This document shows positions 3,338 to 56,892 of a stretch of DNA of 64,000 nucleotides, one piece after another. Below the pieces are notes generated by a model, which was not told the DNA's origin, did not search any database, and saw only the letters and a program-made list of their open reading frames with translations. Location: positions 69,423 to 133,422 of the forward strand of contig DASPHZ010000002.1 of NCBI GenBank assembly GCA_035629395.1. The letters run 5' to 3'. The position numbers were made by a program, and so were the translations under genes. Each line of letters starts with the position of its first letter. Position 1 is the stretch's first letter. This stretch comes from Thermoanaerobaculia bacterium (GTDB lineage: Bacteria > Acidobacteriota > Thermoanaerobaculia > Gp7-AA8).

Positions 3338-3447
3338 CAGCGTTGCTGGCTGCTCGTTGGTGGTTGCTCGTGACGTGTCGCCCCGGCGATGGACTCCCGA
3401 GCACCAGCAACCAGCAACCAGCAAGCAGCAACCAGCAACCAGCCACA
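3338..3447. repeat. Inverted array of phased heptamer repeats (unit CAGCAAC / GTTGCTG), family B copy 1; exactly fills the hppD stop to hmgA start gap
   Basis: Left arm gttgctg-gctgctc-gttggtg-gttgctc. Unique core gacgtgtcgccccggcgatggactcc. Right arm cagcaac x5-6 running directly into the hmgA ATG. Confidence 0.8.
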
Positions 3448-8494: not shown

Positions 8495-8498
8495 CGCC

Positions 8499-8591
8499 GT
8501 CATCCTGAGCGAAGCGAAGGATCTCGAACTTCGTCGCATGCGCGTTCTGCCTAGCCTGAGACCCTTCGCCCTCTGCGGGGCTCAGGGTGAC
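8499..8591. repeat. ~90-bp palindromic REP/MITE-like element, copy 1 (termini GTCATCCTGAGC...GCTCAGGGTGAC, inner GCGAAGGATCTC...GAGACCCTTCGC)
   Basis: Nested inverted repeats can form a long imperfect hairpin. A second copy lies at 9781-9867. Translates as ...SS*AKRRIS / ILRSAQDDG in spurious ORFs. Confidence 0.8.
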
Positions 8592-8608
8592 GGATAGAAT
8601 CGGCCTGC

Positions 8609-9790
8609 ATGACCGACTTTCCGATCGAAAACCTTCCCTTCGGCGTTTTCCGCGCGGCTGACGGCAACGCGCATGGATGCACGGCGTTCGAGGACCGCAT
8701 CCTCGACCTGCATGCATGCGCGCGCGCGGGCCTCATCGACGAGCCGGCGCTGCTCGCGCCGCTGCTCAACGAGTTGATGGCGAAGGGACGCGCCGCGTCG
8801 CGGGCCGTGCGTGCTCGCGTGCGCGAGCTCATCGAATCCGGCGCCGCGGACGCGCACTTTGTCCCAATGCAGGGAGCGGAGATGCTCCTGCCGATGCGCA
8901 TCGGCGACTACACCGATTTCTACGCGAGCATCCATCACGCGACGAACGTCGGCTCGATGTTCCGTCCCGACAATCCGCTGCTGCCGAATTACAAGTGGTT
9001 GCCGATCGGCTATCACGGGCGCGCGTCGTCGATCGTCGTCAGCGGCACGCCCGTGCGCCGTCCCGCGGGACAGACGAAGGACGATGCGAGTGCCTCGCCG
9101 AGCTTCGGTCCCTCCAAGAGGCTCGATTACGAAATGGAAATGGGCATCGTCATCGGCGCGGGCAATGCCCTCGGCGAACCGATTGCGGTCGGCGACGCGC
9201 TGGGGCACGTGTTCGGATTCTGTCTCGTCAACGACTGGTCCGCCCGCGACGTGCAGACGTGGGAGTACCAGCCGCTCGGGCCGTTCCTGGCGAAGAATTT
9301 CGCCACGTCGATCTCGCCGTGGATCGTGACGATGGACGCGCTGGAGCCGTTCCGCACGAAGGCATTCGTGCGTGCGGAAGGAGATCCGCCGCCGCTTCCT
9401 TACTTACAGGACGACGTCGGCTTCGACGTCAACGTGGAAGTGTGGCTGCGCACCGCGAAGATGACCGAGCCCGTGCGTCTCAGCCGCGGCAACTTCCGCG
9501 ACATGTACTGGACAGTCGCGCAGCTCGTGGCGCATCACACGTCGAACGGCTGCAACCTCGTGCCCGGCGACCTGCTCGCGAGCGGCACGATCTCGGGTGA
9601 AGCGAAGGACGCGCGCGGCTCGCTGCTCGAGCGGGCGTGGCGCGGCACCGAGCCGGTCGAATTGCCGGGCGGGGAAACGCGCAAGTTTCTCGAAGACGGT
9701 GACGAAGTGGTGTTGCGCGCGTACTGCGAGCGCGACGGCCTGCGCATCGGCTTCGGCGAATGCCGCGGCGTCGTGCTGCCGTCATCCTGA
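8609..9790 (+). CDS. fahA: fumarylacetoacetate hydrolase
   Basis: 393 aa. N-terminal FPIENLPFGVF and a FAH-fold C-terminal domain (GYHGRASS, DYEMEMG, VNDWSARD). Confidence 0.9.
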   Translation: MTDFPIENLPFGVFRAADGNAHGCTAFEDRILDLHACARAGLIDEPALLAPLLNELMAKGRAASRAVRARVRELIESGAADAHFVPMQGAEMLLPMRIGDYTDFYASIHHATNVGSMFRPDNPLLPNYKWLPIGYHGRASSIVVSGTPVRRPAGQTKDDASASPSFGPSKRLDYEMEMGIVIGAGNALGEPIAVGDALGHVFGFCLVNDWSARDVQTWEYQPLGPFLAKNFATSISPWIVTMDALEPFRTKAFVRAEGDPPPLPYLQDDVGFDVNVEVWLRTAKMTEPVRLSRGNFRDMYWTVAQLVAHHTSNGCNLVPGDLLASGTISGEAKDARGSLLERAWRGTEPVELPGGETRKFLEDGDEVVLRAYCERDGLRIGFGECRGVVLPSS

Positions 9791-9867
9791 GCGGAGCGAA
9801 GGATCTCAAAATGCGTAGGACGCGCGTGCTGCGTAGTCTGAGACCCTTCTTCGCGGCTTAGGGTGAC
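9781..9867. repeat. ~90-bp palindromic REP/MITE-like element, copy 2; supplies the fahA stop codon and sits between convergent genes
   Basis: Begins GTCATCCTGAGCGGAGCGAAGGATCTC and ends GCTTAGGGTGAC. The fahA C-terminal residues ...LPSS and its TGA lie inside the element. Confidence 0.8.
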
Positions 9868-9872
9868 GCGGC

Positions 9873-11472: not shown

Positions 11473-11965
11473 CCAGCAAATAGCACGGGTGCATCAGGCC
11501 CGTGGGCTCGTAGAACTCATCGCGCCAGTACTCGAAGCCGAGGGCTTCGAGTACTCGGCGCGATCGTGTGTTGTGCGGATTGTGGCCGGCGTAGAGCGTC
11601 GTCGCATGGAGCGATCCGAACGCGTGGGCGATGACCGCCTTTGCCGCCTCGGGCGCGAGGCCGCGGCCCCAGAGCTCCGGCAGCAGGTGGAAGCCGAGGG
11701 CCATGATGTCGTGCTGCGGTCGAAGGCCGCAGCAGCCGGCGAATGCATTCGTCTCGAGGAGAAACAGCGGCCAGTACTGAATGCCGAGCGTTTCCTGATT
11801 CGCGATCTCGCGTGCGAGCCGCGCGCGCACCTTTTCTTCCGTGTACGGCCCGCCGATGTGTTGCATCACGTCCGCGTCCATCCAGAGACGGGACGCCAGC
11901 TCGAAGTCATTCGAGGACCAGTGGCCGAAGCCGAGACGTTCCGAACGCAGCCAGTAATTTCTCAA
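11444..11965 (-). CDS. GNAT family N-acetyltransferase
   Basis: RimJ/RimL-like sequence ...[21 protein letters not shown]...[31 protein letters not shown]. Probable TTG start overlapping the purL stop. The ORF-track entry 11444..14119 is a spurious extension. Confidence 0.6.
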
Positions 11966-14238
11966 TGGGCCATCACGTCCAGTGCTTCTTCGCCGACGCC
12001 GCGCAGGACTTCGTCGATGGTGTCGCCGCCGAGGAGGAGGCCGAAGGCGGAGCGCCACATGCGGGCGAGCTCCTGTGCGGCGACGCGCACGAGCGGCACT
12101 CCATGGCGCTCGATGAGGAACATGCCGTGTGCCGTATGCCCGAGGCGCTGCGCTTTCACGCCGTGCTTCGCCGCCGCTTCGAGCACGCGCGCGGTCTCGG
12201 TCTTCGCGCACGCGACGACGGCGCGCGCCTGCGACTCGCTGAAGAGCAGGCCCGTCGCGTCGAGCTCGTCCGCGTGTCCGGCGAGATCGACGTGGCAGCC
12301 GATGCCGTCCATCGACATCTCCGCGAGCGCGACTCCGAGTCCGCCGTTGGCGATGTCGTGCGCCGCGCGCAGCGTGTGCGTGCCGTGCAGCTCGAGCAGC
12401 AGCTCGATGAGGGAGCGTTCGCGATCCAGATCGACGCGCGGCGGTACGGCGAGCGCGTTCGCGTCGTACATCTGCTGCCACTCGCTGCCGCCCATTTCGT
12501 CGCGCGTCTCGCCGAGGAGCACCACGTCGAGATCCGCGTCGGGGAAGGCCAGGCCGCAGCCGTCGCGATCGCTGTCGAGAATGCCGACCATGCCGACGGT
12601 CGGCGTCGGATAAATCGCGCGCCCTTCGGTCTCGTTGTAGAACGAGACGTTGCCGGAGACGACCGGCGTGTCGAGGGCGCGGCAGGCGTCGCTGATGCCG
12701 CGGATGCACTCCGCGAACTGCCACATGATGTCGGGGCGTTCGGGCGAGCCGAAATTGAGGCAGTCGGTGATCGCGACCGGGCGTCCACCCGATGCCGCGA
12801 CGTTGCGCGCCGCTTCCGCGACGGCCTGTTTGCCGCCCTCGTACGGATCGAGGTAGCAGTAGACGGGATTCACGTCCGAGGTCATGGCGAGGGCGCGGCC
12901 GGTCTCTTTGACGCGGACGACCGCGGCGTCGCGTTTCTCCGGCCCGGCGATCGTGTTCGTGCGCACGGTCGTGTCGTACTGGCCGAAGATCCAATGCTTC
13001 GAGCAGAGGTTCGGCGAGGCCAGGAGGCGCATCAACGTCTCGGTGCGATCGCCGTCCTGTTCCTGGTTGCGCGCGAGCACGGGCGCGAGCTGATCGGCGT
13101 AATCCGGACGCGCGAGGGGACGTTCGTACAGCGGCGCTTCGGTGGAGATGGGCTCGACGGGAATCGCGGCCACTTCCTCGCCGTGCCACATGAGGCGCAC
13201 GAAGCCGTCGTCCGTCACTTCGCCGACGACGGCGGCGTTGAGATCCCAGCGCTCGAACGTGCGCACGACGTCTTCTTCGCGGCCCTGTTTCGCGACGATG
13301 AGCATGCGCTCCTGCGATTCGCTGAGCATGATCTCGTACGGCGTCATGCCGCTCTCGCGCATCGGCACGCGGTCGAGGTGCATGCGCACGCCGGTGCCCG
13401 CGCGGCCGGCCATCTCGAACGAGGAGGACGTGAGTCCCGCCGCGCCCATGTCCTGGATGCCGACGACCGCATCCGAGTCCATGATCTCGAGACATGCTTC
13501 GAGCAGCAGTTTTTCGGTGAACGGGTCGCCGACCTGCACGGTCGGGCGTTTCTCCTCGGAGGCCTCGTCGAATTCCGCGGAGGCCATGGTCGCGCCGTGG
13601 ATGCCGTCGCGGCCCGTCTTCGAGCCGACGTAGATCACGGGATTGCCGACGCCGCTCGCGGTGCCTTTGAAGATCTTCTCGCGCTTCGTGACGCCGAGGG
13701 AGAAGACGTTGCAGAGAATGTTGCCGTTGTAAGAGGGGTGGAACGAGGTCTCGCCGCCGACGGTGGGGATGCCGATGCAGTTGCCGTAGCCGCTGATGCC
13801 GCGCACGACCCCGTCGACGAGGTACTTCATGCGCGGCGCGTCGAGCTCTCCGAAGCGCAGCGAATCGAGCGATGCGATCGGGCGCGCGCCCATGGTGAAG
13901 ATGTCGCGAAGGATGCCGCCGACGCCGGTCGCCGCGCCCTGGTACGGCTCGATGAACGACGGGTGGTTGTGCGACTCCATCTTGAACGCGGCCACCCACC
14001 CATCGCCGATGTCGATCACGCCCGCGTTCTCGCCGGGCCCCTGCACCACGCGCGGCCCCGACGTGGGGAACTTGCGCAGGTGCACGCGCGACGATTTGTA
14101 CGAACAATGCTCCGACCACATCACCGAAAAGATCCCCAGCTCCGTGTAGTTCGGCTCGCGCCCGAGGATCTGCAGGATGCGCTGGTATTCGTCTTCGGTG
14201 ATGCCGTGGGAGCGGACGAGGGCGGGGGTGATCTGCAT
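11962..14238 (-). CDS. purL: phosphoribosylformylglycinamidine synthase subunit PurL
   Basis: 758 aa. AIR-synthase-related tandem domains. Conserved SHNHPS, GGETSF and DMGAAGL motifs. Confidence 0.95.
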
Positions 14239-14257
14239 GGAGGGGATTCTAGCTGGG

Positions 14258-14365
14258 GGAGGAGCTATAGAGCTGTAGAGCGTTAGAGCCGTAGAGGGGT
14301 GCTCCCCTTCCCCTTTACCGCTCTACAGCTTTACCGCTCTACCGCTCTACCGCTCAACAGCTCCC
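14258..14365. repeat. Inverted array of phased octamer repeats (unit GAGCTGTA / TACAGCTC and variant TACCGCTC), family A copy 1, in the purL/oxidoreductase divergent region
   Basis: Reads gagctata-gagctgta-gagcgtta-gagccgta-gagg | gtgctcccc | ...taccgctc-tacagctt-taccgctc x3-aacagctc. Confidence 0.8.
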
Positions 14366-14416
14366 CCCTGTCACACTCCCCCTCCCTCGCTCGTCCTTAC
14401 TCGCCAGGAGGCACAC

Positions 14417-15442
14417 ATGCACGAATCCATCATCATTCTTGGGGGCGGTTACGGCGGGGTCATGGCGGCGGCGCGGTTGGCGCGGCGCGGGATTCCGGTG
14501 ACGCTCGTCGACGCGCGGCCGGCGTTCGTGGAGCGCATCCGGCTGCATCAGGTGGCGGCGGGCGACGACGTCGCGCCGGTGCCGTATGCGCGGATGTTTC
14601 GGAACCTGCCGGTCGCGTTCGTCCAGGCGCGCGTCGAGCGGATCGATCGCGTGAACAAGCGCGTGATCACGAGCGAAGGGGAGCTGCGGTACGACAAGCT
14701 GGTTTACGCTCTCGGCAGTGAGGAGACGGGATTGAACCCGATCGCGATCCGCGAGCGGCTGAAAACGGCGAAGAACATGATCGTCGTCGGCGGCGGGCTG
14801 ACCGGCATCGAGACCGCGAGCGAAGTCGCGGAGCGCCATCCGCACGTGCAGGTCACGCTCGTCGACAGCGGGACGCTCGGCAAGGGACTTTCGCCGCGCG
14901 CGCAGCGGCATCTGCGGACGTGGTTCGACGCACACAATGTCACGGTGATCGAAAACCATCGCATCGCCCAAGATGCGCATCTCGCAGCGGACATCGTCGT
15001 CTGGTGCACGTCGTTCACGCTCTCGCCGATCGCGCGCGACGCGGGACTGCACGTCAACGCGCGCGGACAGATCGTCGTCGACGATCGCCTGCGCTCGTCC
15101 GATCCGTCGATCTTCGCGGTCGGCGATGCGGCGGCGTGCCGCGACTACCGCATGTCGTGCGCGCTCGCGCTGCCGATGGGCGCGCACGTCGCGGACACGA
15201 TCGCGGGGATCGCGCGCGAGCCGTTCCGTTTCGGTTTCGCCATCCAGTGCATCTCCCTCGGACGCCACGACGGCATCATTCAGCTCGTGAACGCCGACGA
15301 TTCGCCGAAAGAGATGGCCATCACCGGACGCCCCGGCGCGTGGATCAAGGAGCTGGTCTGCCGTTACGCGGCCGGATCGCTCAAGCTCGAAGCGCGCGGC
15401 TTCCGCTATCACTGGCCGCAGCCGGAGCAGGAGGCGGCGTGA
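14417..15442 (+). CDS. NAD(P)/FAD-dependent oxidoreductase (pyridine nucleotide-disulfide / NDH-2-like)
   Basis: N-terminal IIILGGGYGGVMAAARL Rossmann motif. Second dinucleotide motif MIVVGGGLTGIE. FAVGDAA near the C-terminus. Confidence 0.8.
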   Translation: MHESIIILGGGYGGVMAAARLARRGIPVTLVDARPAFVERIRLHQVAAGDDVAPVPYARMFRNLPVAFVQARVERIDRVNKRVITSEGELRYDKLVYALGSEETGLNPIAIRERLKTAKNMIVVGGGLTGIETASEVAERHPHVQVTLVDSGTLGKGLSPRAQRHLRTWFDAHNVTVIENHRIAQDAHLAADIVVWCTSFTLSPIARDAGLHVNARGQIVVDDRLRSSDPSIFAVGDAAACRDYRMSCALALPMGAHVADTIAGIAREPFRFGFAIQCISLGRHDGIIQLVNADDSPKEMAITGRPGAWIKELVCRYAAGSLKLEARGFRYHWPQPEQEAA

Positions 15443-16311
15443 ACGAGTTCGAGGCGTATCGCGCGCTGCTGTTTTCGATCGCATACCGGATGACCGGCAG
15501 CGCGGCCGATGCGGAGGATCTCGTGCAGGACGCGTACGTGCGATACGCGTCCACCGACACCGAGGTCGTGCGGGACGTGAAGGCGTTCCTCGTCACCGTC
15601 CTCACGCGCCTCGCGCTCGACCGGTTGAAGTCCGCGCAGAAGCAGCGCGAGGAGTACATCGGTCCGTGGCTGCCGGAGCCCGTCTTCACCGGCATCGACG
15701 GCGATCCCTACGCGCGCGCCACACGCGACGAGAAGGTGGAGATGGCGCTGCTGCGCGCACTGGAACGACTATCGCCGACCGAACGCGCGGTGCTGCTGTT
15801 GTACGAGGTGCTCGAGCATGACCACAACGAGATCGCGGAACTGCTCGAGATCACACCCGCGGCATCGCGGCAGACCCTGCATCGGGCGAAGGAGCGCGTG
15901 GCGGCGGAGAAGCGCCGCTTCACGCCTCCCGTCGAAGAACAGCGCCGCTTGATCGAAGGATTCATCGGTGCGGTGGCGAAAGGCGACGTCGACGGGTTGC
16001 GCAGCATGCTCGCCGCGGACGTCGTGTCGATTGCCGACGGCGGCGCGAAGTCGTTCGCGGCCAAGCGGCCGATTCACGGCGCGGATGCGGTGGCGAAGAT
16101 GTGGGTCGGCATCGCCCAGAAGTTCGGCACCGGGTTCTCCGTCTCGATCGAAGAAGTCAACGGCGCGCTCGCGCTCGTCGGACGCCGCGATGGTGCCATC
16201 GGCAGCATTCTGTCGTTCGCGTTCGAGGGCGACCGCATCGCGGAGCTGGTGAGCTTCGTCAATCCCGACAAGCTGGCGTTCGCGCAGCGGCAGACTACTG
16301 CGCCGCGTTGA
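15439..16311 (+). CDS. RNA polymerase ECF sigma factor, SigJ type (sigma2/sigma4 plus a C-terminal SnoaL-like domain)
   Basis: Starts VNEFEAYRALLFSIAYRMTGSAADAEDLVQDAYVRY. GTG start overlaps the upstream stop (GTGA) and is preceded by AGGAGG. Confidence 0.8.
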   Translation: MNEFEAYRALLFSIAYRMTGSAADAEDLVQDAYVRYASTDTEVVRDVKAFLVTVLTRLALDRLKSAQKQREEYIGPWLPEPVFTGIDGDPYARATRDEKVEMALLRALERLSPTERAVLLLYEVLEHDHNEIAELLEITPAASRQTLHRAKERVAAEKRRFTPPVEEQRRLIEGFIGAVAKGDVDGLRSMLAADVVSIADGGAKSFAAKRPIHGADAVAKMWVGIAQKFGTGFSVSIEEVNGALALVGRRDGAIGSILSFAFEGDRIAELVSFVNPDKLAFAQRQTTAPR

Positions 16312-17020: not shown

Positions 17021-18093
17021 CGCGCGCGCATTCTCTGCAGGCGCTCGAGGTTTTTCAAGGGCAGCGTGCGGAACGGCTTGTCGGTGAAGATGCGGATCGC
17101 ACGGCGCCGCAGGTAGTCGCGGAAATCTTCGGCGAACGGCGACAGAGAGCCTTCCACCGTCGCGGCGTCGAGGTTGAAGTAGACGTCGCCGAACGCGATC
17201 CCGAGCTCGTCTCTTTTCACGATGTCGATGGCGACGTCGGAGTCATTCCAGCGCGCCACGTAACGCCCTTCCTTCGACACGACCTCGAGGCCTTTCGACG
17301 GCAGCGTGGTGAGGTAGTCCTCGATGATGTCGACGGCGAGGCGCTCTTTCTTGTCGCGCGTCATCGGGCGCGGATAGCTGCCCGGCTCTCCCTTGATCTC
17401 CGCGGGCACGCCGGCGGCGAGGGTGTGCGGCGGGATGTCGCGCGTGACGAGCGAGCACGCGCCGACGGTGCTGTAGTCGTGGATCGTCACGCCCGGCATG
17501 ACCGACGATTTCAGGTAGACGACGACGTAATCGCCGATCGTGATCGGTGCGAATTTCGTCGGATAGCCCATCATCGACGGCTGCCACGCGGCGTGGGTGA
17601 GGAGGCAGACGTCGGTGCTGAGCGCGCTGCCGTTGCCGAGCGTCACGGTCTCGGAGAGGTTGATGTAGCAGCCGTCGAACACCGACGTGTGATCGCCGAT
17701 GAGGAGGTACGAGCGCGGTCCTCGCGCGCCGCCGCCGCCGACGACGACGTTGTCTTTCAGCCAGAGAAACTCGCCGGCGCGCATGCCCTGCCCCGCGATG
17801 GCGACGTTGTTGCCGACGACGGAGAAGCGTCCGATGCGGAAGTACTCGTTCATCTCGGCGGACGTGTTGGAGCCGATGCTGCTGCCTTCGCCGAGCTCGA
17901 TCTCCGGTGCGAGCATCGTCGTGTTCGCGCCGATCTTCGCGTTCGCGCCGAGGATGAGGCGGTCGCAGGTGATCTGCACGTTGGGGCCGATGCGGACGCC
18001 GCCGGCGATGGAGACTTCGTCCGCTGTGATGACGCTGCCGGGGCCGAGCTCGACGCCGGCAGCGACGTTGGAGACACGCGCGTGAATCTGCAT
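17017..18093 (-). CDS. hexapeptide-repeat (LbH) acyl/acetyltransferase
   Basis: Many [LIV]G-x4 hexapeptide repeats. Real start is MQIHARVSNV at 18093, immediately after the tsaE stop; the 5' extension to 18252 is spurious. Confidence 0.75.
   Translation of the reverse strand: MQIHARVSNVAAGVELGPGSVITADEVSIAGGVRIGPNVQITCDRLILGANAKIGANTTMLAPEIELGEGSSIGSNTSAEMNEYFRIGRFSVVGNNVAIAGQGMRAGEFLWLKDNVVVGGGGARGPRSYLLIGDHTSVFDGCYINLSETVTLGNGSALSTDVCLLTHAAWQPSMMGYPTKFAPITIGDYVVVYLKSSVMPGVTIHDYSTVGACSLVTRDIPPHTLAAGVPAEIKGEPGSYPRPMTRDKKERLAVDIIEDYLTTLPSKGLEVVSKEGRYVARWNDSDVAIDIVKRDELGIAFGDVYFNLDAATVEGSLSPFAEDFRDYLRRRAIRIFTDKPFRTLPLKNLERLQRMRAR

Positions 18094-23307: not shown

Positions 23308-23311
<4 letters not shown>
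22574..23311 (-). CDS. ubiE: class I SAM-dependent methyltransferase, UbiE/MenG-like
   Basis: LDLASGTG SAM motif. ~245 aa, the UbiE/COQ5 family size. Start MNTLPP overlaps the nadE stop (ATGA). Confidence 0.65.
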
Positions 23312-24963
<1,652 letters not shown>

Positions 24964-25003
24964 GAGCTGTAGAGCTGTAGAGCTTTAAAGCTTTAGAGCT
25001 TCA
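24964..25003. repeat. Five phased octamers agctgtag-agctgtag-agctttaa-agctttag-agcttcag, family A copy 2, around the palindrome GCTTTAAAGC
   Basis: Directly abuts the nadE TTG start in the divergent region upstream of the 25125 gene. Confidence 0.75.
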
Positions 25004-27752: not shown

Positions 27753-27843
27753 TTCCGTGGAGTCCGCGCATGACGGGACGTCGTCTCGGTGCGGCGGAGG
27801 CGACGGCGCGAAACCGTCGTTGCGTCACGGCGAGACGTCGTAA

Positions 27844-27885
27844 CGACAGTGGACGTGCGCGCGCGGTTGCGCACGTCCACTGTCG
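27844..27885. terminator. bidirectional hairpin terminator between convergent genes
   Basis: Perfect 17-bp stem CGACAGTGGACGTGCGC / GCGCACGTCCACTGTCG with an 8-nt loop, followed by a U-rich tail on the + strand. Confidence 0.6.
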
Positions 27886-29825: not shown

Positions 29826-31094
29826 GTGAAGCGTCCCCTTCTATTCATCGTCGCAGCCGTATTGTGTCCATTGCGTTCCTGGACGCAGGAAGCGCCGCTC
29901 ACGATCGAGCGCGCCGTCGAGCTGGCGATGACGAGGAATGAGCGCGCCGCGATTGCCGATACGGCAGTGGAGGCAGCCGAGGCGCGGGTGCGGGCGGCGC
30001 GGACCCTGTTTTTTCCTCGGGTCGACGTGGATGGCGGCTACGCGACCGATTGGGGCAACGGCACCGAGCGCACGCTGTCGGCCGCGGCCACGGTGACGCA
30101 GCCGGTGTTCAACGCGCGCGCGTTTCCGCTCTATCGACAGCAACGGTATCTGCGGGAGGCCGCGGGCTTCGCGGCACAGGAAACGCGGCGCCTCGTCGGC
30201 TACGACGCGGCCGCGGCATTTCTGGCCACGCTGGGATTCGAGCAGGTGCTGCTCGCTGCCGAACGCCGCCGCGAATTCGCGCAGACGAACCTCGCCGATG
30301 TGCGCGCGCGATTCGAGGCGGGCCTCGTCAGCTCGAATGACGTGACGCGTGCGGAGCTCGAGCTCGCGACGGCGGTGCGCGGCGTCGCGCAGGCTTCGGG
30401 TGACGTGCAGGCCGCGCGTGTCGATCTCGAGAATCTGTTGAACGCGGAAGTCGACGGACCGCTCGCACCGCCGACGGCCTTGCTGGCCGCTGCGGCCGAG
30501 GCGCCCGCGACGACCGGGAACGGGATCGCGGAGGCGCAGGCTCGCCGCAATGACATCGCCGCCGCGCGTGCGGAAGTCGAGGCGCAGCGCGAGTTCGCGG
30601 ACGAGCCGAACGCGCGCTTCTTCCCGTCCTTACAGGTGCAGGCGCAGACGCGCAACGTCAATGACGGTCCGGTGACCTCGCGCAACAACGACGGTTTCGT
30701 CGGACTCACGTTCGCGTGGCCGGTATTCGACGCCGGCATCCGCGGCGCGGAGCGCGCGCAACGCACCGCGGAGCTGCGCGGACGCGAGCTCGAATTGCAG
30801 GCGTCCTTGCGGCAGGTCGAGCGCGAGCTGCGCAGCGCGGGCGTGCAGCTCACGACGGAGCAAGCCGCGCTGCGCGAAGCGACGGCCGCGCTCGAAGCCG
30901 CCCGCCGCAACCTGCACGAAACGACCGTGCTCTATCGCGAAGGCCTCGCCAGCGCCCTGGAGCTCGCGGACGCGACCCAGCGCCTGTTCGAAGCCGAAGT
31001 CGCGCAGGTGACGGCGCGGTACCGGATGGCGGTGGCGTATCTGTCGTTGGAAGAGGCGCGCGGGGAAGCGCCGGTGGGGGAGATAAGAAGATGA
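29826..31094 (+). CDS. TolC-family outer membrane efflux protein
   Basis: Signal peptide and tandem OEP repeats. 422 aa. Confidence 0.85.
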   Translation: MKRPLLFIVAAVLCPLRSWTQEAPLTIERAVELAMTRNERAAIADTAVEAAEARVRAARTLFFPRVDVDGGYATDWGNGTERTLSAAATVTQPVFNARAFPLYRQQRYLREAAGFAAQETRRLVGYDAAAAFLATLGFEQVLLAAERRREFAQTNLADVRARFEAGLVSSNDVTRAELELATAVRGVAQASGDVQAARVDLENLLNAEVDGPLAPPTALLAAAAEAPATTGNGIAEAQARRNDIAAARAEVEAQREFADEPNARFFPSLQVQAQTRNVNDGPVTSRNNDGFVGLTFAWPVFDAGIRGAERAQRTAELRGRELELQASLRQVERELRSAGVQLTTEQAALREATAALEAARRNLHETTVLYREGLASALELADATQRLFEAEVAQVTARYRMAVAYLSLEEARGEAPVGEIRR

Positions 31095-31185
31095 ATGCAG
31101 AATGCAGAATGCAGAATGCAGAATTGCGAAAAGGGATGCGGCTGAAGGTTCTCCTTTCTTCTTTCTGCATTCTGCATTCTGCGTT
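31095..31185. repeat. Hairpin built from phased heptamers (GAATGCA x4 ... TGCATTC x3), family C; bridges the OMP stop and the MFP start
   Basis: ~20-bp perfect stem gcagaatgcagaatgcagaat / attctgcattctgcattctgc. The second arm encodes part of the MFP lipoprotein signal peptide (SSFCILHSAF). Confidence 0.8.
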
Positions 31186-32251
31186 CGTCTTTTCCTGCTC
31201 CAGGGGTGATGCCGCGGCCAACGCCTCCGCTGGCGGGTCGGGGGCAAGCCGCCGCGGGGCGATGGAGTTTCCGGTCGAGGTGAAGGCGGTTGAGTCGCGT
31301 CGCGTCGAGTATTCCGTCAATGCGGTCGGGTCGCTCGACGCGTTCGAGCGTGTGGCTGTGACGGCGCGTGTGGCGGGTGCGATCGAGAAGGTGAATTTTC
31401 GCGAGGGGCAGCTCGTGTCCACCGGGTCGACGCTCGCGGAGATCGAGCCGGAGCGGTATCGCATCGCGGTCCGCGCCGCGGAGGCGGCGGTGACGAAGGC
31501 GCTGGCGTCGAAGGCGGAAGCGGAGGCGGGGTATGCGCGGCGGCAGGCGGCGAGTGAGAAGAATCCGGGGCTGATCCGCGGCGAAGAGATCGAGACGTGG
31601 CGGACGAAGGTGCAGACCGCGGCCGCGGAAGTCGCGGCGGCGCAGGCCGCGCTCGCGCAGGCGCGGCTCAATCTGCGCGACGCGTTCGTGCGCGCGCCGG
31701 TCGCCGGCACCATCCAGACGCGCACCGTCGAGACGGGACAGTACGTGCCGGTCGGCACCGTGCTCGCCACGCTCATGCGCCGCGACCCGCTCCTGCTGCG
31801 CTTCCAGGTGCCGGAGCAGGAAGCGATGCCGCTGCGTCCGGGCATCGTCGCGCGGTTCAACGTGGCCGAGGATCAGGCGCAGCATCGGGCGACGATCACG
31901 CATGTAGCCGCGGCGGCGAATCGCTCCTCGCGCATGGTCGACATCACCGCGAACGTCATCGACGCGAACCGCCCCGAGCTTCGTCCCGGCGCCTTCGCGC
32001 GCGTGACGGTGCCGATCGGTTCCGAGCGCGACGCGCCCGTCATCCCGCAGACCGCCATCCGGCCAAGCGAAAAAGGCTTCCTCGCCTTCACCGTCAATAA
32101 CGGCGTCGCCACACAACGCGTCCTCACCCTCGGCATGCGCACCGCCGACGGCCAGGTCGAAGTGAAGGAAGGCCTCCAACCCGGCGAGCTGCTGGTGATC
32201 CGCGGCGCGGAAGCGTTGCGGGATGGGGCGAAGGTGAAGGTGACGAGGTGA
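31136..32251 (+). CDS. efflux RND periplasmic adaptor (HlyD/MFP family), lipoprotein
   Basis: Lipobox MRLKVLLSSFCILHSAFVFSC. Coiled-coil plus beta-barrel MFP pattern. The ORF-track start at 30716 is an antisense-region extension. Confidence 0.8.
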   Translation: MRLKVLLSSFCILHSAFVFSCSRGDAAANASAGGSGASRRGAMEFPVEVKAVESRRVEYSVNAVGSLDAFERVAVTARVAGAIEKVNFREGQLVSTGSTLAEIEPERYRIAVRAAEAAVTKALASKAEAEAGYARRQAASEKNPGLIRGEEIETWRTKVQTAAAEVAAAQAALAQARLNLRDAFVRAPVAGTIQTRTVETGQYVPVGTVLATLMRRDPLLLRFQVPEQEAMPLRPGIVARFNVAEDQAQHRATITHVAAAANRSSRMVDITANVIDANRPELRPGAFARVTVPIGSERDAPVIPQTAIRPSEKGFLAFTVNNGVATQRVLTLGMRTADGQVEVKEGLQPGELLVIRGAEALRDGAKVKVTR

Positions 32252-32287
32252 CGACGGGACGACGGGAGAGATGTTGCGCAAGCGGGG

Positions 32288-32504
32288 GAGCTGTTGAGCT
32301 GTTGAGCCGTTGAGCAAGGCGAGGCGCCGAGAGCTGTAAAGCTGTAAAGCTGTAAAGCGGTAGAGGGGTCAAGCCCCTTTATAGCTCTACAGCTCTACGG
32401 CTCTACAGCTCAATGCCTCAACAGCTCAACAGCTCAACGGCTCAACAGCTCAACAGCTCTATAGCTCTATAGCTCTACAGCTCAATGCCTCAACAGCTCA
32501 ACAG
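32288..32504. repeat. ~215-bp inverted array of ~27 perfectly phased octamers (GTTGAGCT/GTAAAGCT ... AGCTCTAC/AGCTCAAC), family A copy 3; fills the MFP-to-RND gap
   Basis: Dyad centre ggggtcaagcccc. Right arm is 15 consecutive RGCTCWAY octamers, including an internal 34-bp duplication. Confidence 0.85.
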
Positions 32505-32519
32505 GCGAGAACCAATGCC

Positions 32520-38448: not shown

Positions 38449-39803
38449 CGGAGCTCGAGCGGCACGTTCGCGAGAATCACATCGGCGGCATCATCTGGTT
38501 CGCGGCGGACTCGCGTGAAGTCGCGACGATCAACGCGCACCTGCAGTCGATCGCGCAGACGCCGCTGCTGATCAGCGCCGATCTCGAGGCGGGGGCGGGC
38601 ATGCGCTTTCCCGATCTCGACTGGTGGCCTCCGGCGATGGCGATCGCCGCGACGGGCGATCCGTCGCTCGCGGAGGAGATGGGTCGCGAGACCGCACGCG
38701 CCGCGCTGGCGATCGGCGTCGATCACGTGCTCGCGCCGGTCGCCGACGTGAACGTCGATCCGCGCAACCCGGTGATCAACACGCGCAGCTTCGGCGAGGA
38801 TCCGCATGAGGTGGCGCGCTATGTCGCGGCATTCGTACGCGGCGTGCAGAGCGAAGGCGCGCTCGCGTGTGCGAAGCATTTCCCCGGACACGGCGACACG
38901 CACATCGACTCGCACCGTGCGTTGCCGGTGCTCGAGGTCACGCGCGAGCGGCTCGAGCAGATCGAGCTCGTGCCGTTTCGTGCGGCCATCGAGGCAGGCG
39001 TGGCCTCGGTGATGGTGGGACATCTCGCGGTGCCTGCGATCGACGACACGCCGGTGCCGGTGCGCGCGTCGTTCGAGAACGCGTATGCCATCGAGCACGA
39101 AGAGGTGACGCGCGGCGGGACGATGCCGGCGACGTTGTCGCGCCGCGTGATCGATCTGTTGCGGCGCGATCTCGCGTATGACGGGCTGGTCGTCACCGAT
39201 GCGATGGACATGGGCGGGCTGGCCGCGCATTTCGATCCGGGCGAGGCGGCGGTGCGAGCGCTCGAGGCGGGGTGCGATCAGGTGTTGTTTTCGCCCGATC
39301 CGGATGCGGCGATTGCGGCGGTGCGGCTCGCGGTGCAGACGGGTCGCATCGAGATCGAGGATGCGTTGAGAAGGGTCCGCGCGGCGAAGGAGCGGCGGCG
39401 GGACGCCAGCGCTCCGCGTCGTGCGGCGGAGCGGGCGGTGCGCGTCGTGCGCGATACGAACCACCTGCTGCCGCTGCGCAGCAGCGTGTGCGTGATCGCG
39501 GTGAGTCCGCACGACGATCCGCTCGACGACGCGCTCCACGCGCTGCCGCCGAGTCGCGACGATGGTGAGGTGATCGTGTTGTTGCTGGCGCTGCGGCCGA
39601 AATCAGGAGCGGGGCCGATCGTGGTGCCGGAGGAGATCAAGCGCATCGCGCGCGAGCATCCGCAGCGCACCATCGCCATCTCCTTCGGCAGCCCCTACAT
39701 CCTCGCCGAGCTCGGCGAGGTCAGCACGTTCGTTTGTGCGTGGGGCGTGCAGCCGGTGCTGCAGCGCGCGGCGATCGCGCGCGTGAAGGAGGGCAGGCCG
39801 TAG
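38394..39803 (+). CDS. nagZ: beta-N-acetylhexosaminidase, glycoside hydrolase family 3 (NagZ-like)
   Basis: IGQLFVV start region and the KHFPGHGDT...DSH catalytic motif. GTG start ~55 nt inside the end of the symporter gene. Confidence 0.8.
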   Translation: MDDIGQLFVVDARGGCNVAELERHVRENHIGGIIWFAADSREVATINAHLQSIAQTPLLISADLEAGAGMRFPDLDWWPPAMAIAATGDPSLAEEMGRETARAALAIGVDHVLAPVADVNVDPRNPVINTRSFGEDPHEVARYVAAFVRGVQSEGALACAKHFPGHGDTHIDSHRALPVLEVTRERLEQIELVPFRAAIEAGVASVMVGHLAVPAIDDTPVPVRASFENAYAIEHEEVTRGGTMPATLSRRVIDLLRRDLAYDGLVVTDAMDMGGLAAHFDPGEAAVRALEAGCDQVLFSPDPDAAIAAVRLAVQTGRIEIEDALRRVRAAKERRRDASAPRRAAERAVRVVRDTNHLLPLRSSVCVIAVSPHDDPLDDALHALPPSRDDGEVIVLLLALRPKSGAGPIVVPEEIKRIAREHPQRTIAISFGSPYILAELGEVSTFVCAWGVQPVLQRAAIARVKEGRP

Positions 39804-39825
39804 CGGCCTGCCCCCGGAACGTCAC

Positions 39826-41673: not shown

Positions 41674-42069
41674 TTACTCCCTCTCCGCGATGCGGACGCG
41701 CTGCGTCTGCGGCTTGATGCGGAGGACGGTGTCGACCGCCGCGGTCTTCGCCGCGAACGCCGCCGCTTCCGAATGATCGTCCGTGCAGGTGAAGACGAAG
41801 TTGCCTTCGTCATCGGTGCGCACGACGTACATGTGGTCGAAAGACTCGTCGAGTGCGAGTCCGACCGCTTTGCCGCTCGTCAGCACGCGCATGACGCTCG
41901 GACGCGCTTTCGGCGCGAGCGCCTGCATCTCGGCCGCGGTCGGCTGCCGGAGCTGGCCGTTTTCGTCGACCGACACCTGCATGCCGTCGGGCTGTTTGTC
42001 CCGAACTTGTCCGAGAAGCGGTAAGGAGAGAAGACACAACGCGAGAACCAATGGACTCCGCCTGATCAT
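41674..42069 (-). CDS. small secreted hypothetical protein (131 aa) immediately upstream of the metalloprotease
   Basis: Signal peptide MIRRSPLVLALCLLSLPLLG. 6-bp gap to the protease start. Confidence 0.5.
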   Translation of the reverse strand: MIRRSPLVLALCLLSLPLLGQVRDKQPDGMQVSVDENGQLRQPTAAEMQALAPKARPSVMRVLTSGKAVGLALDESFDHMYVVRTDDEGNFVFTCTDDHSEAAAFAAKTAAVDTVLRIKPQTQRVRIAERE

Positions 42070-42284
42070 GAGGGCCCCCTGAGAGAGAGGTAAGGGACCG
42101 AATTTCGGCAGCCGGACCGTCGCTGCGCCGACGCGACGCAGGATTCCTGGCTTTGCGCCACCGTCTCGCGACGGTTTTGCCTTTTCGATTCGGTGGTTCA
42201 GTTGTACGGGACGGGGCAGATTTTAGAGACGGCCGGAAGGAAGTCAACTCAAATTGTCTGTCAGCGCTGGCGTAGCATGCCCGC

Positions 42285-53540: not shown

Positions 53541-53625
53541 TGTTGCTGGGGGCTGGTTGCTCGTTGCTTGCGATCCTCGCGAGACCTCACGAGCCACCAG
53601 CAACTAGCAACCAGGAACCTTAGCC
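53541..53625. repeat. Inverted phased-heptamer array (GTTGCTG ... CAGCAAC), family B copy 2; exactly fills the MFP stop to RND start gap
   Basis: Reads gttgctg-ggggctg-gttgctc-gttgctt | gcgatcctcgcgagacctcac | gagccac-cagcaac-tagcaac-cagg. Architecture matches the 3338-3447 element. Confidence 0.8.

Positions 53626-56892
<3,267 letters not shown>

Follow-up and report, generated by a model that had tools for sequence, protein, structure and literature searches.

An inverted octamer array between the divergent purL and ECF41 promoters of an uncultured Thermoanaerobaculia lineage as a putative structured spacer

Introduction

The region that separates purL from an oxidoreductase–sigma factor operon in an uncultured lineage of Thermoanaerobaculia (Acidobacteriota) carries two runs of tandem octamers in inverted orientation. 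The question raised by this locus is whether such an array is a set of binding sites that governs the two promoters, a signal carried in RNA, a mobile or switching element, or a self-pairing insert that the spacer accommodates. An initial annotation of the region favored the first of these, a DNA-level binding-site array or nucleoid-associated structure. Here, we draw on the fold and architecture of the array, the genes and promoter motifs that flank it, its relatives elsewhere in the 64-kb stretch of DNA that was analyzed (hereafter, the window, to which all unqualified positions refer) and the orthologous spacer of related contigs, which are given L numbers where they need to be told apart.

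Architecture and fold of the element

The initial annotation described an octamer inverted array at 14258–14365, and the description is borne out: the sequence is exactly as noted, and tandem repeat detection (TRF), complementarity, predicted folds and shuffled controls all agree with it. The complete element is a hairpin in which two octamer arms enclose a tip and are closed by a G5 clamp (14255–59) and a C5 clamp (14364–68; Table 1). Its 5′ arm consists of GAGCTATA (14262–69), GAGCTGTA (14270–77), GAGCGTTA (14278–85) and GAGCCGTA (14286–93), and its 3′ arm of TACCGCTC (14316–23), TACAGCTT (14324–31), three further copies of TACCGCTC (14332–55) and AACAGCTC (14356–63). TRF delimits the two period-8 arrays as 14262–14296 (4.4 copies) and 14316–14363 (6.0 copies), and the arms form an inverted repeat (I1, 14257–14296/14329–14368) that is 83% complementary over 40 nt.

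On either strand, and in RNA and DNA alike, the element is predicted to form one long imperfect stem with z-scores of -4 to -7. The RNA fold reaches -83.7 kcal/mol (z -6.5) on the plus strand and -90.5 kcal/mol (z -4.2) on the minus strand, and the single-stranded DNA folds reach -32.2 and -36.7 kcal/mol (z -5.5 and -6.9), values equaled by none of 200 shuffles. In a sliding-window scan of minimum free energy (MFE) the elements of the window do not stand out from the 67% GC background, whereas their shuffle z-scores do; the GC content of the whole window is 66.7%. The number of arrays also exceeds expectation. The window has nine strong arrays of period 6–12 and four inverted array pairs, whereas 100 versions of it shuffled by dinucleotide average 0.43 such arrays (maximum 3) and include no inverted pair at all. 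Only three contigs from a metagenome scan could be anchored on the purL start together with GGATTCTA. An independent metagenome contig (L088) has an array identical to that of the window, which is thus not an assembly artefact.

Table 1. Positions of the hairpin, its flanking features and related elements in the window
Feature	Position	Strand	Basis or remark
purL (FGAM synthase II)	11962..14238	-	Pfam AIRS, AIRS_C, FGAR-AT_linker
TAGAAT, -10 box of predicted leaderless purL promoter	14246..14251	-	7 nt before ATG
Whole tandem-repeat hairpin (G5 clamp, 5′ arm, tip, 3′ arm, C5 clamp)	14255..14368	.	folds and inverted repeat
5′ arm, four G-skewed octamers	14262..14293	.	sequence; TRF period 8, 4.4 copies; GC skew +0.64
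Tip GAGGGG-tgct-CCCC-tt-CCCC-tt	14294..14315	.	aligned with other family-A hairpin
3′ arm, six C-skewed octamers	14316..14363	.	sequence; TRF period 8, 6.0 copies; GC skew -0.62
ECF41-type promoter, TGTCACA (14369–75), n16, CGTC (14392–95)	14369..14395	+	exact motif match; kept in relatives
Operon of oxidoreductase (14417–15442) and ECF41 sigma factor (15439–16311)	14417..16311	+	Pfam Pyr_redox_2; NCBIfam SigX4/SigJ
Heptamer hairpin GTTGCTG/ACCAGCA, unrelated to family A; fills HPPD stop–hgmA ATG spacer	3341..3446	.	
Family-A array, one arm only; abuts TTG start of nadE (23308–24963, -)	24962..25002	.	TRF
Heptamer hairpin GAATGCA/TGCATTC at OMP–MFP junction	31091..31190	.	
Family-A nested hairpin, ~7.5 vs 15 units; fills MFP–RND spacer	32285..32507	.	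MFE -129 kcal/mol
Second GTTGCTG/CAGCAAC-family hairpin, upstream of gene at 53626	53543..53619	.	

Flanking genes and promoters

The PurL encoded in the window matches proteins from uncultured Thermoanaerobaculia at up to 93% identity. No Shine-Dalgarno sequence precedes its ATG, and among 11 relatives GGATTCTA or a one-base variant of it (GCATTCTA, GGATTTTA and GGATTGTA in L092–L094) is found in 10, at 7–9 nt from the purL ATG and likewise without a Shine-Dalgarno sequence, whereas the bases between the -10 box and the ATG are not conserved. Across the window, TANNNT stands 5–11 nt before the start codon of 9 of 36 genes, where 0.19 would be expected. Given this excess and the conservation of TAGAAT close to the ATG, the purL mRNA is most likely leaderless and transcribed from the TAGAAT box. 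Inside the array, no sigma-70 -35 box for purL is conserved among the relatives and no promoter-like site is called.

On the other side, TGTCACA-n16-CGTC is an exact match to the promoter signature defined for ECF41 sigma factors and the oxidoreductase-type genes that accompany them (Wecke et al., 2012; PMC3426412). The signature, for which a spacing of n16(±1) is allowed, is expected in front of a COE-type gene with a linked ECF41 sigma factor, and the operon here encodes an oxidoreductase and such a sigma factor. The oxidoreductase gene has its own Shine-Dalgarno sequence (AGGAGG, 14406–11), and the sigma factor exceeds the curated score cut-offs for TIGR02957 and for the SigJ subfamily. As placed by these motifs, the hairpin is the spacer of ~110 bases between two outward-firing core promoters. 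The earlier placement of the array in divergent-promoter DNA is therefore right in that it lies between both promoters, although it is more exactly described as upstream of both core promoters. Since both promoter motifs fire away from it, the hairpin is probably part of neither the purL nor the oxidoreductase mRNA at this locus.

Several other roles for the array were considered and rejected. The array does not read as an intrinsic terminator with a GC-rich stem and a following U/T tract, as no terminator-like site is called, no T-run is present and both adjoining genes start here. An intrastrand triplex (PIT/TMECO-like) at the GAGGGG/CCCC tip would have the wrong third-strand orientation, the similarity of sequences inside the arrays to ECF41 sigma decoy boxes is too weak, and cruciform extrusion that moved TGTGACA to a -35 position would give a spacing of ~3 nt where 17 are needed.

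Related elements in the window

The window harbors at least six tandem-repeat hairpin elements belonging to at least three unrelated unit families, every one of them at a gene boundary (Table 1), and self-pairing repeats occupy roughly 40% of its longer intergenic spacers. REP/BIME/REPIN-type elements coexist with them at 8498–8592 and 9780–9868. The octamer family of the purL spacer (family A) recurs, as the initial annotation had stated, in GAGCTGTW arrays at 24962–25002, where only a single arm is present, and at 32285–32507. The number of units per arm at the three loci is 4.4/6, 5/0.5 and 7.5/15, and across all elements the center between the arms measures 4–30 nt. The initial annotation also suggested comparing the family-A loci with one another: the tip GTAGAGGGGT-loop-CCCCTTTA is common to the two full hairpins (14294–14315 and 32366–32382), while the third locus is one-armed. 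The common tip implies that a whole family-A hairpin, rather than the unit alone, was copied between these loci. Within the 1.6 Mb of sequence retrieved for comparison, family A is confined to the window, its twin contig L088 and the sister L001.

At orthologous sites of other boundaries the repeat units differ between relatives. A related octamer hairpin (GAGTCKTA) is found in L087 upstream of nadE. The HPPD–hgmA junction is a TGATG overlap in L086 and is occupied by hairpins of three unit types in the window, L085 and L093. The inverted-array architecture itself is also present in other phyla.

The purL spacer in related genomes

We compared the purL-upstream region in 11 relatives with PurL amino-acid identities of 88–93%; a scan of genome contigs for PurL, in which the relatives among the matches listed have ≤60% identity, serves as an out-group survey and not as a set of orthologues. 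In the spacer that runs from the -10 box to the ECF41 -35 box, family-A octamers are found in the sister L001, where they are organized in 47-nt higher-order repeats. L002 has GTTGTCS heptamers, L084 and L094 have GGTTGCG-type heptamers, and L003 and L087 share nonamers of the type ATGGGACCT/ATAGGACGN (9-mer ATAGGACNN). Non-tandem REP-like or long palindromes occupy the spacer of L085, L091 and L092, a RAYT-type Y1 transposase gene between inverted REPs that of L086, and L093 has only small hairpins. Tandem-repeat hairpins of four unit families thus account for 7 of the 12 orthologous spacers, non-tandem palindromes for 3 and the RAYT gene with its REPs for 1, and all purL spacers analyzed have one dominant hairpin, with z-scores of -2.5 to -14.7. 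The expectation that the array would be present at orthologous positions in close relatives is accordingly borne out for some hairpin element, but not for the octamer itself, which is absent beyond L001.

The unit family agrees with the purL nucleotide tree, in which the window pairs with L001, L084 with L094 and L003 with L087. This agreement indicates that the element at the purL site is vertically inherited and that it was replaced by other families at deeper nodes. Within a pair, copy number is fluid, with ~10 copies in L084 against 2.5 in L094 at 90% purL identity. On short time scales the arrays are not hypermutable, since they are identical in two pairs of independent samples (window/L088 and L003/L090). 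The 9-mer ATAGGAC family has outlasted the divergence of the flanks in L003 and L087, whose purL genes are 83.7% identical, and L003 retains its hairpin though the adjoining oxidoreductase–sigma operon has been replaced. Some hairpin element occupies the purL spacer in 11 of 12 cases, spanning ~6 independent lineages, vs. the ~40% noted above for the longer window spacers, and this high occupancy hints at either selection or an insertion hot spot.

Origin of the elements and the favored explanation

A decamer hairpin at 17595–17732 of L084 records how such an element may arise. The alignment has an empty site in the sister L094, and the 3′ arm of the hairpin, (CCGAGGAACY)n, runs directly into a ~25-nt sequence (CGAGGAACCGATCGGCGACTTGATC) that duplicates the 3′ end of the gene upstream. 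An automated flank test of this element returned a 22-nt match with one mismatch, which was matched by 1% of random controls. The alignment thereby shows a young element that was built in situ from adjacent coding sequence in a direct–inverted–direct (DUP-INV-DUP) arrangement, as would be expected if replication switched template twice. Quasi-palindrome template-switch mutations and DUP-INV-DUP events were reportedly described by Ripley in 1982, Dutra and Lovett in 2006 and Carvalho in 2011. The L084 element resembles them in comprising a host segment, an inverted copy and a second direct copy; unlike those single mutational events, the product here has been amplified into arrays and persists over speciation. 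A flanking duplication or target-site duplication is significant in this one of 24 elements and negative in the other 23, and the flank test finds no flanking direct repeat or target-site duplication at the window element, which therefore does not qualify as a MITE.

Two further cases resemble local seeding. The DUF2064/yjeF junction is an ATGA stop/start overlap in four relatives, and in L003 and L091 it consists of (NNNATGA)n, a loop, (TCATNNN)n and then a restored ATGA. At the purL site, the heptamers of L002, L084 and L094 share GTTG(T/C) with a conserved flank, GTTGTCACACT, that follows the 3′ arm. For the NNNATGA units of L003/L091 and for the purL-site heptamer units, these correspondences do no more than suggest an origin in situ, which is proven for the L084 element and suggested for three others.

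The explanation that we favor, with a confidence slightly better than even, is that the element between purL and the ECF41 operon is a "palindromic minisatellite" from a dispersed, REP-like intergenic class whose arms are inverted arrays of a 7–10-nt unit, and that it serves as a structured spacer and not as a set of operators. Such an element would begin as an inverted duplication when replication switches template, with the copy taken either from local sequence or from an array already present at another locus; the latter would account for the occurrence of family A and its common tip at three loci. Its arms would then lengthen and shorten separately by slipped-strand mispairing; the CGGTA variant occurs four times in the 3′ arm of the window element and not at all in its 5′ arm, as expected if each arm slips alone. 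A self-pairing insert would be tolerated where the flanking signals stay intact, either between divergent promoters or from a stop codon to the next start, and by keeping stop and start codons close it may owe its tolerance at once-overlapping junctions to the fold. At this locus, it would act as a structured spacer and could at the most, being able to form a cruciform, insulate the purL and ECF41 promoters from each other or take up supercoils between them.

Alternative readings of the array

If a nucleoid-associated protein or a global regulator recognized the units as phased, sequence-specific sites, it could coat both arms and set the activity of both promoters. The regular phasing and multi-copy nature of the units, their promoter-upstream position in DNA predicted to be untranscribed and the retention of a unit family within a clade while flanks diverge (L003, L087) are all in keeping with such an array. 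Units also look alike across phyla (TTCTGCA/ATTCTGA, GTTGCTG/GTTGCTYN and CTGTTGAG/TWGTTGAY), but a rough calculation puts the chance expectation of such matches at ~0.7. Both the units and their periods (7, 8, 9 and 10 nt) differ at the orthologous site and within one genome, none of the periods fits helical phasing, the arms are unequal and drift independently, the unit of the L084 element derives from coding sequence, and in other clades the purL site is filled by non-tandem REP-like palindromes. Nor does a conserved partner regulator, for which the initial annotation suggested looking, travel with the arrays: the linked ECF41 sigma factor has a separate promoter motif of its own, arrays occur at unrelated loci too, no regulator gene co-occurs with them, and L003 keeps its hairpin after replacement of the neighboring operon. 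We consider operator arrays unlikely. The annotation had further held that the element acts in DNA and not as an mRNA signal, and here one half survives, as sense RNA folds no better than antisense among the 12 operon-spacer members, while the binding-site half is undercut by units that are not conserved. An RNA hairpin, acting in a 5′ leader or on read-through as an mRNA stabilizer, a terminator or insulator without a U-tract, or a device that juxtaposes stop and start, would nonetheless suit the many members that exactly fill operon stop-to-start spacers and must be transcribed there. The predicted RNA stems are highly stable, convergent gene ends in this genome have hairpins without T-runs, which makes U-less termination plausible, and where elements replaced ATGA or TGATG overlaps a hairpin would hold stop and start together. 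At the purL locus, however, both promoter motifs point away from the element, and the array region has no T-run and no terminator-like site was called in it. Rfam 15 returns no family for the element at the gathering threshold, and at a permissive threshold only sub-threshold look-alikes of eukaryotic miRNA precursors, on both strands. Just 4 of the 12 operon-spacer elements have a sense RNA that folds more stably than its antisense, so the G-U asymmetry that selection for an RNA stem would leave is absent, and we hold a function in RNA to be quite unlikely.

Movement in trans, by a RAYT-type Y1 transposase that reads the hairpin and a GTAG tag, would make the element a non-autonomous REPIN- or MITE-like unit. 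Family A with its conserved tip at three loci in 64 kb, the RAYT genes and classical REPs found at the purL site in relatives, and the GTAG contained in TA-type units speak for this possibility, GTAG being the tag of one REP superfamily (Di Nocera, 2013; PMC3733652). In the window element, GTAG lies inside every GAGCTGTA-GAGC junction and is not a single terminal tag, and other unit families have neither GTAG nor CGTC. The elements vary in length and copy number, lack fixed termini and, at the window locus, a target-site duplication; the REPs on either side of the RAYTs of L085 and L086 are of a different, conventional kind, tblastn finds no RAYT within the 64-kb window, and the L084 element arose from host sequence on the spot. 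Transposition of this kind is distinctly improbable as the origin of the arrays. Least credible is a phase-variable promoter element in which gain or loss of octamers switches purL or sigma-operon expression, a reading to which we give almost no weight. Tandem repeats do lie beside a -10 box and their copy number differs between sister species, but in two comparisons, involving two elements, independent metagenome samples have identical arrays, the housekeeping gene purL is an unlikely contingency locus, and the array lies upstream of the promoter elements and not between them.

Polarity of the arms

One fact runs contrary to a neutral history of slippage such as the palindromic minisatellite would have. 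Of 23 elements drawn from Thermoanaerobaculia, further Acidobacteriota, Nitrospirota and other groups, 22 have a G-skewed arm on the 5′ side of the dyad and a C-skewed arm on its 3′ side (binomial p 6e-6, with kinship ignored). By symmetry the rule holds on both strands, and stem thermodynamics do not account for it; neutral slippage does not predict it, and it implies selection or polar biogenesis. Geometrically, the polarity could correspond to two repeat-extended 3′ ends meeting head to head, or to Chi-active arrays facing a break at the tip. Taken together with locally seeded units and motifs that partly recur across phyla, it points to a possible dedicated pathway or structure-specific protein. 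Tandem-repeat hairpins might then be a cross-phylum class with its own polar biogenesis or reader, made by a dedicated break-healing or repeat-addition pathway or bound by a structure-specific protein, and forming functional spacers at compact, often leaderless promoters; we assign this broader proposal a low probability. A further point against the neutral account is that unit motifs partly recur in the window and in Geobacter, which could mean a conserved reader.

Comparison with known repeat classes

REP sequences and their BIME and REPIN derivatives are likewise dispersed, hairpin-forming and intergenic, with species-specific sequence at conserved positions, and they occupy the same purL spacer in L085, L086 and L091 as well as the two further window spacers mentioned above. 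Their effects are likely structural, namely mRNA stabilization, gyrase or IHF binding and attenuation. REPs are fixed palindromes of 20–40 nt, whereas the arms described here are octamer arrays of variable copy number, and the tandem-repeat hairpins differ further in having no cognate RAYT among those seen, a fluid copy number and one member generated in situ. A second point of comparison is provided by direct arrays: the short tandemly repeated repetitive (STRR) heptamers of cyanobacteria, and the long simple sequence repeats (SSRs) with units of 5–11 nt that Mrazek is said to have described in 2007. The TAACTGA heptamer arrays of Beggiatoaceae, with one inverted case among 170 sets (MacGregor, 2015; PMC4679880), belong beside them. 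All of these share with our elements tandem units of the 7-nt class, an intergenic location that often ends at a start codon and a patchy distribution, but they are direct arrays, whereas inverted pairing and polarity define the class considered here.

The closest counterpart is in Geobacter metallireducens, for which 24, 21 and 8 opposite-strand pairs of tandem GTTGCTYN, TCTCCGTS[Y] and MTYCTGA were listed (Gmet_I1xx–I3xx), between and within operons, as putative IHF/HU "global regulator" sites (Aklujkar et al., 2009; PMC2700814). These sites, like ours, have 3–5 tandem units of 7–9 nt per strand, inverted pairing and a variable center; they occur in dozens of intergenic copies per genome, including between operon genes such as proBA, and several unrelated unit families coexist in one genome. 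Some of their units are near-identical to those of the window, the class-3 unit being one base from the window unit TTCTGCA, and all eight class-3 pairs have a G-skewed arm followed by a C-skewed arm on the plus strand (PMC2700814). With at least three units per site, an inverted pair and multiple intergenic copies of several unit classes, the window element shares the architecture of the Geobacter type. It differs in that Geobacter belongs to another phylum and has shorter arms that lie ~70–115 nt apart; the Geobacter paper contains no comparative or evolutionary analysis, and the IHF/HU role it proposes is putative. In our search of the literature for a named class of inverted tandem arrays, that genome paper and the papers on direct heptamer repeats were the only ones found.

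Implications

The element at the purL locus adds a new family, and a new phylum, to an already known but barely studied kind of repeat. Self-pairing repeats of this kind would be wrongly annotated as operator arrays, sRNAs or terminators. The flanks of the element provide a clean ECF41 promoter, and the -10 motifs suggest leaderless transcripts for about one in four genes of this uncultured Thermoanaerobaculia lineage. A hairpin that persists while its unit is replaced, an element derived from coding sequence and a polarity like that of Geobacter offer handles on the turnover of bacterial intergenic DNA, and they revive a putative annotation from 2009 in the genetically tractable G. metallireducens.

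Inverted arrays and their neighbors

Arrays of heptamer units in inverted orientation exactly fill stop-to-start spacers in several of the compared contigs, a number of them 5′ of purL or purB (see table). They are found in distant Acidobacteriota and in several MAGs, among them one from the Nitrospiraceae, and the class thus extends across phyla. The window's heptamer hairpin at the OMP-MFP junction lies within the 5′ end of the MFP ORF, an in-frame ATG of which is overlapped by the OMP stop codon as ATGA; the signal-peptide core of that ORF, LLSSFCILHSAFVFSC, is translated from the 3′ arm of the hairpin, and a repeat arm therefore serves as coding sequence. In L093, the strand opposite the 3′ arm, (ACCAGCC)n, reads as overlapping copies of the Chi octamer GCTGGTGG, from which the window's version (GCTGGTTG) differs by one mismatch, the reference being E. 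coli Chi, which may not be the Chi of the host lineage.

The main tandem-repeat hairpin, between purL and the oxidoreductase operon, is bordered by a textbook ECF41 module that is kept across relatives and consists of a TGTCACA-n16-CGTC promoter, the oxidoreductase gene and a sigma factor of the SigJ/TIGR02957 type that is extended at its C-terminus. The ECF41 spacer/-10 region shows 85-92% complementarity to the opening codons of purL (GGACGAGGGCGGGGG on the + strand), so that the palindrome reaches into both flanks of the hairpin. This complementarity is probably coincidental, because the first codons of purL differ among relatives.

The fumarylacetoacetase gene has on each side a REPIN-like pair made of REPs in inverted orientation (GTCATCCTGAGCGAAGCGAAGGATCTC ... 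CTCAGGGTGAC); the first pair ends 3 nt upstream of the gene's TAGAAT -10 box, and the same REP occupies the purL-upstream spacer of L091. In L086, the purL ATG immediately adjoins a RAYT-type Y1 transposase gene, which replaces the usual -10 box and hairpin; this gene has inverted GTGTAGTGTGGGCCTCCGGCCTACCTCT on either side and is 70% identical to that of L085.

Table. Coordinates of the features discussed.
Feature	Sequence	Position	Strand	Score
Inverted heptamer array	L063	9925-9988		
Inverted heptamer array	L056	7455-7561		
Inverted heptamer array	L028	4965-5064		
Inverted heptamer arrays	L016	6213-6314, 8597-8708		
Inverted heptamer array	L043	11125-11208		
Heptamer hairpin	window	31091-31190		
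ATGA overlap	window	31091-94		
Chi-like array	L093	13045-13150		
Chi-like array	window	3401-3446		
ECF41 module	window	14369-16311		
purL first codons	window	14214-14228		
Complementary ECF41 region	window	14378-14396		
REPIN-like pairs	window	8498-8592, 9780-9868		
REP	L091	6027-6100		
RAYT gene	L086	9431-9979		
RAYT gene	L085	7162-7710		
Convergent-end hairpins	window	27838-27880, 39785-39812		
c-di-GMP-I riboswitch	window	42104-42191	-	59.7 bits (gathering score 35)
nadE start	window	24963		
Surveyed gene starts (examples)	window	8609, 14238, 21466, 28946, 36961, 42285		

Gene ends and gene starts

Plain GC-rich hairpins lacking a T-run are found at convergent gene ends, and terminators of this genome may be devoid of U-tracts. 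The gene at 41674-42069 is preceded by a c-di-GMP-I riboswitch. The start codon of nadE, TTG in the window and ATG at the aligned position in L086 and L087, immediately adjoins the one-armed array of family A, the octamer family of the main hairpin, and has no Shine-Dalgarno sequence.

A TANNNT hexamer precedes the start codon by 5-11 nt in 9 of the 36 genes surveyed in the window (0.19 expected), so that about one quarter of the genes in this Thermoanaerobaculia lineage look leaderless.
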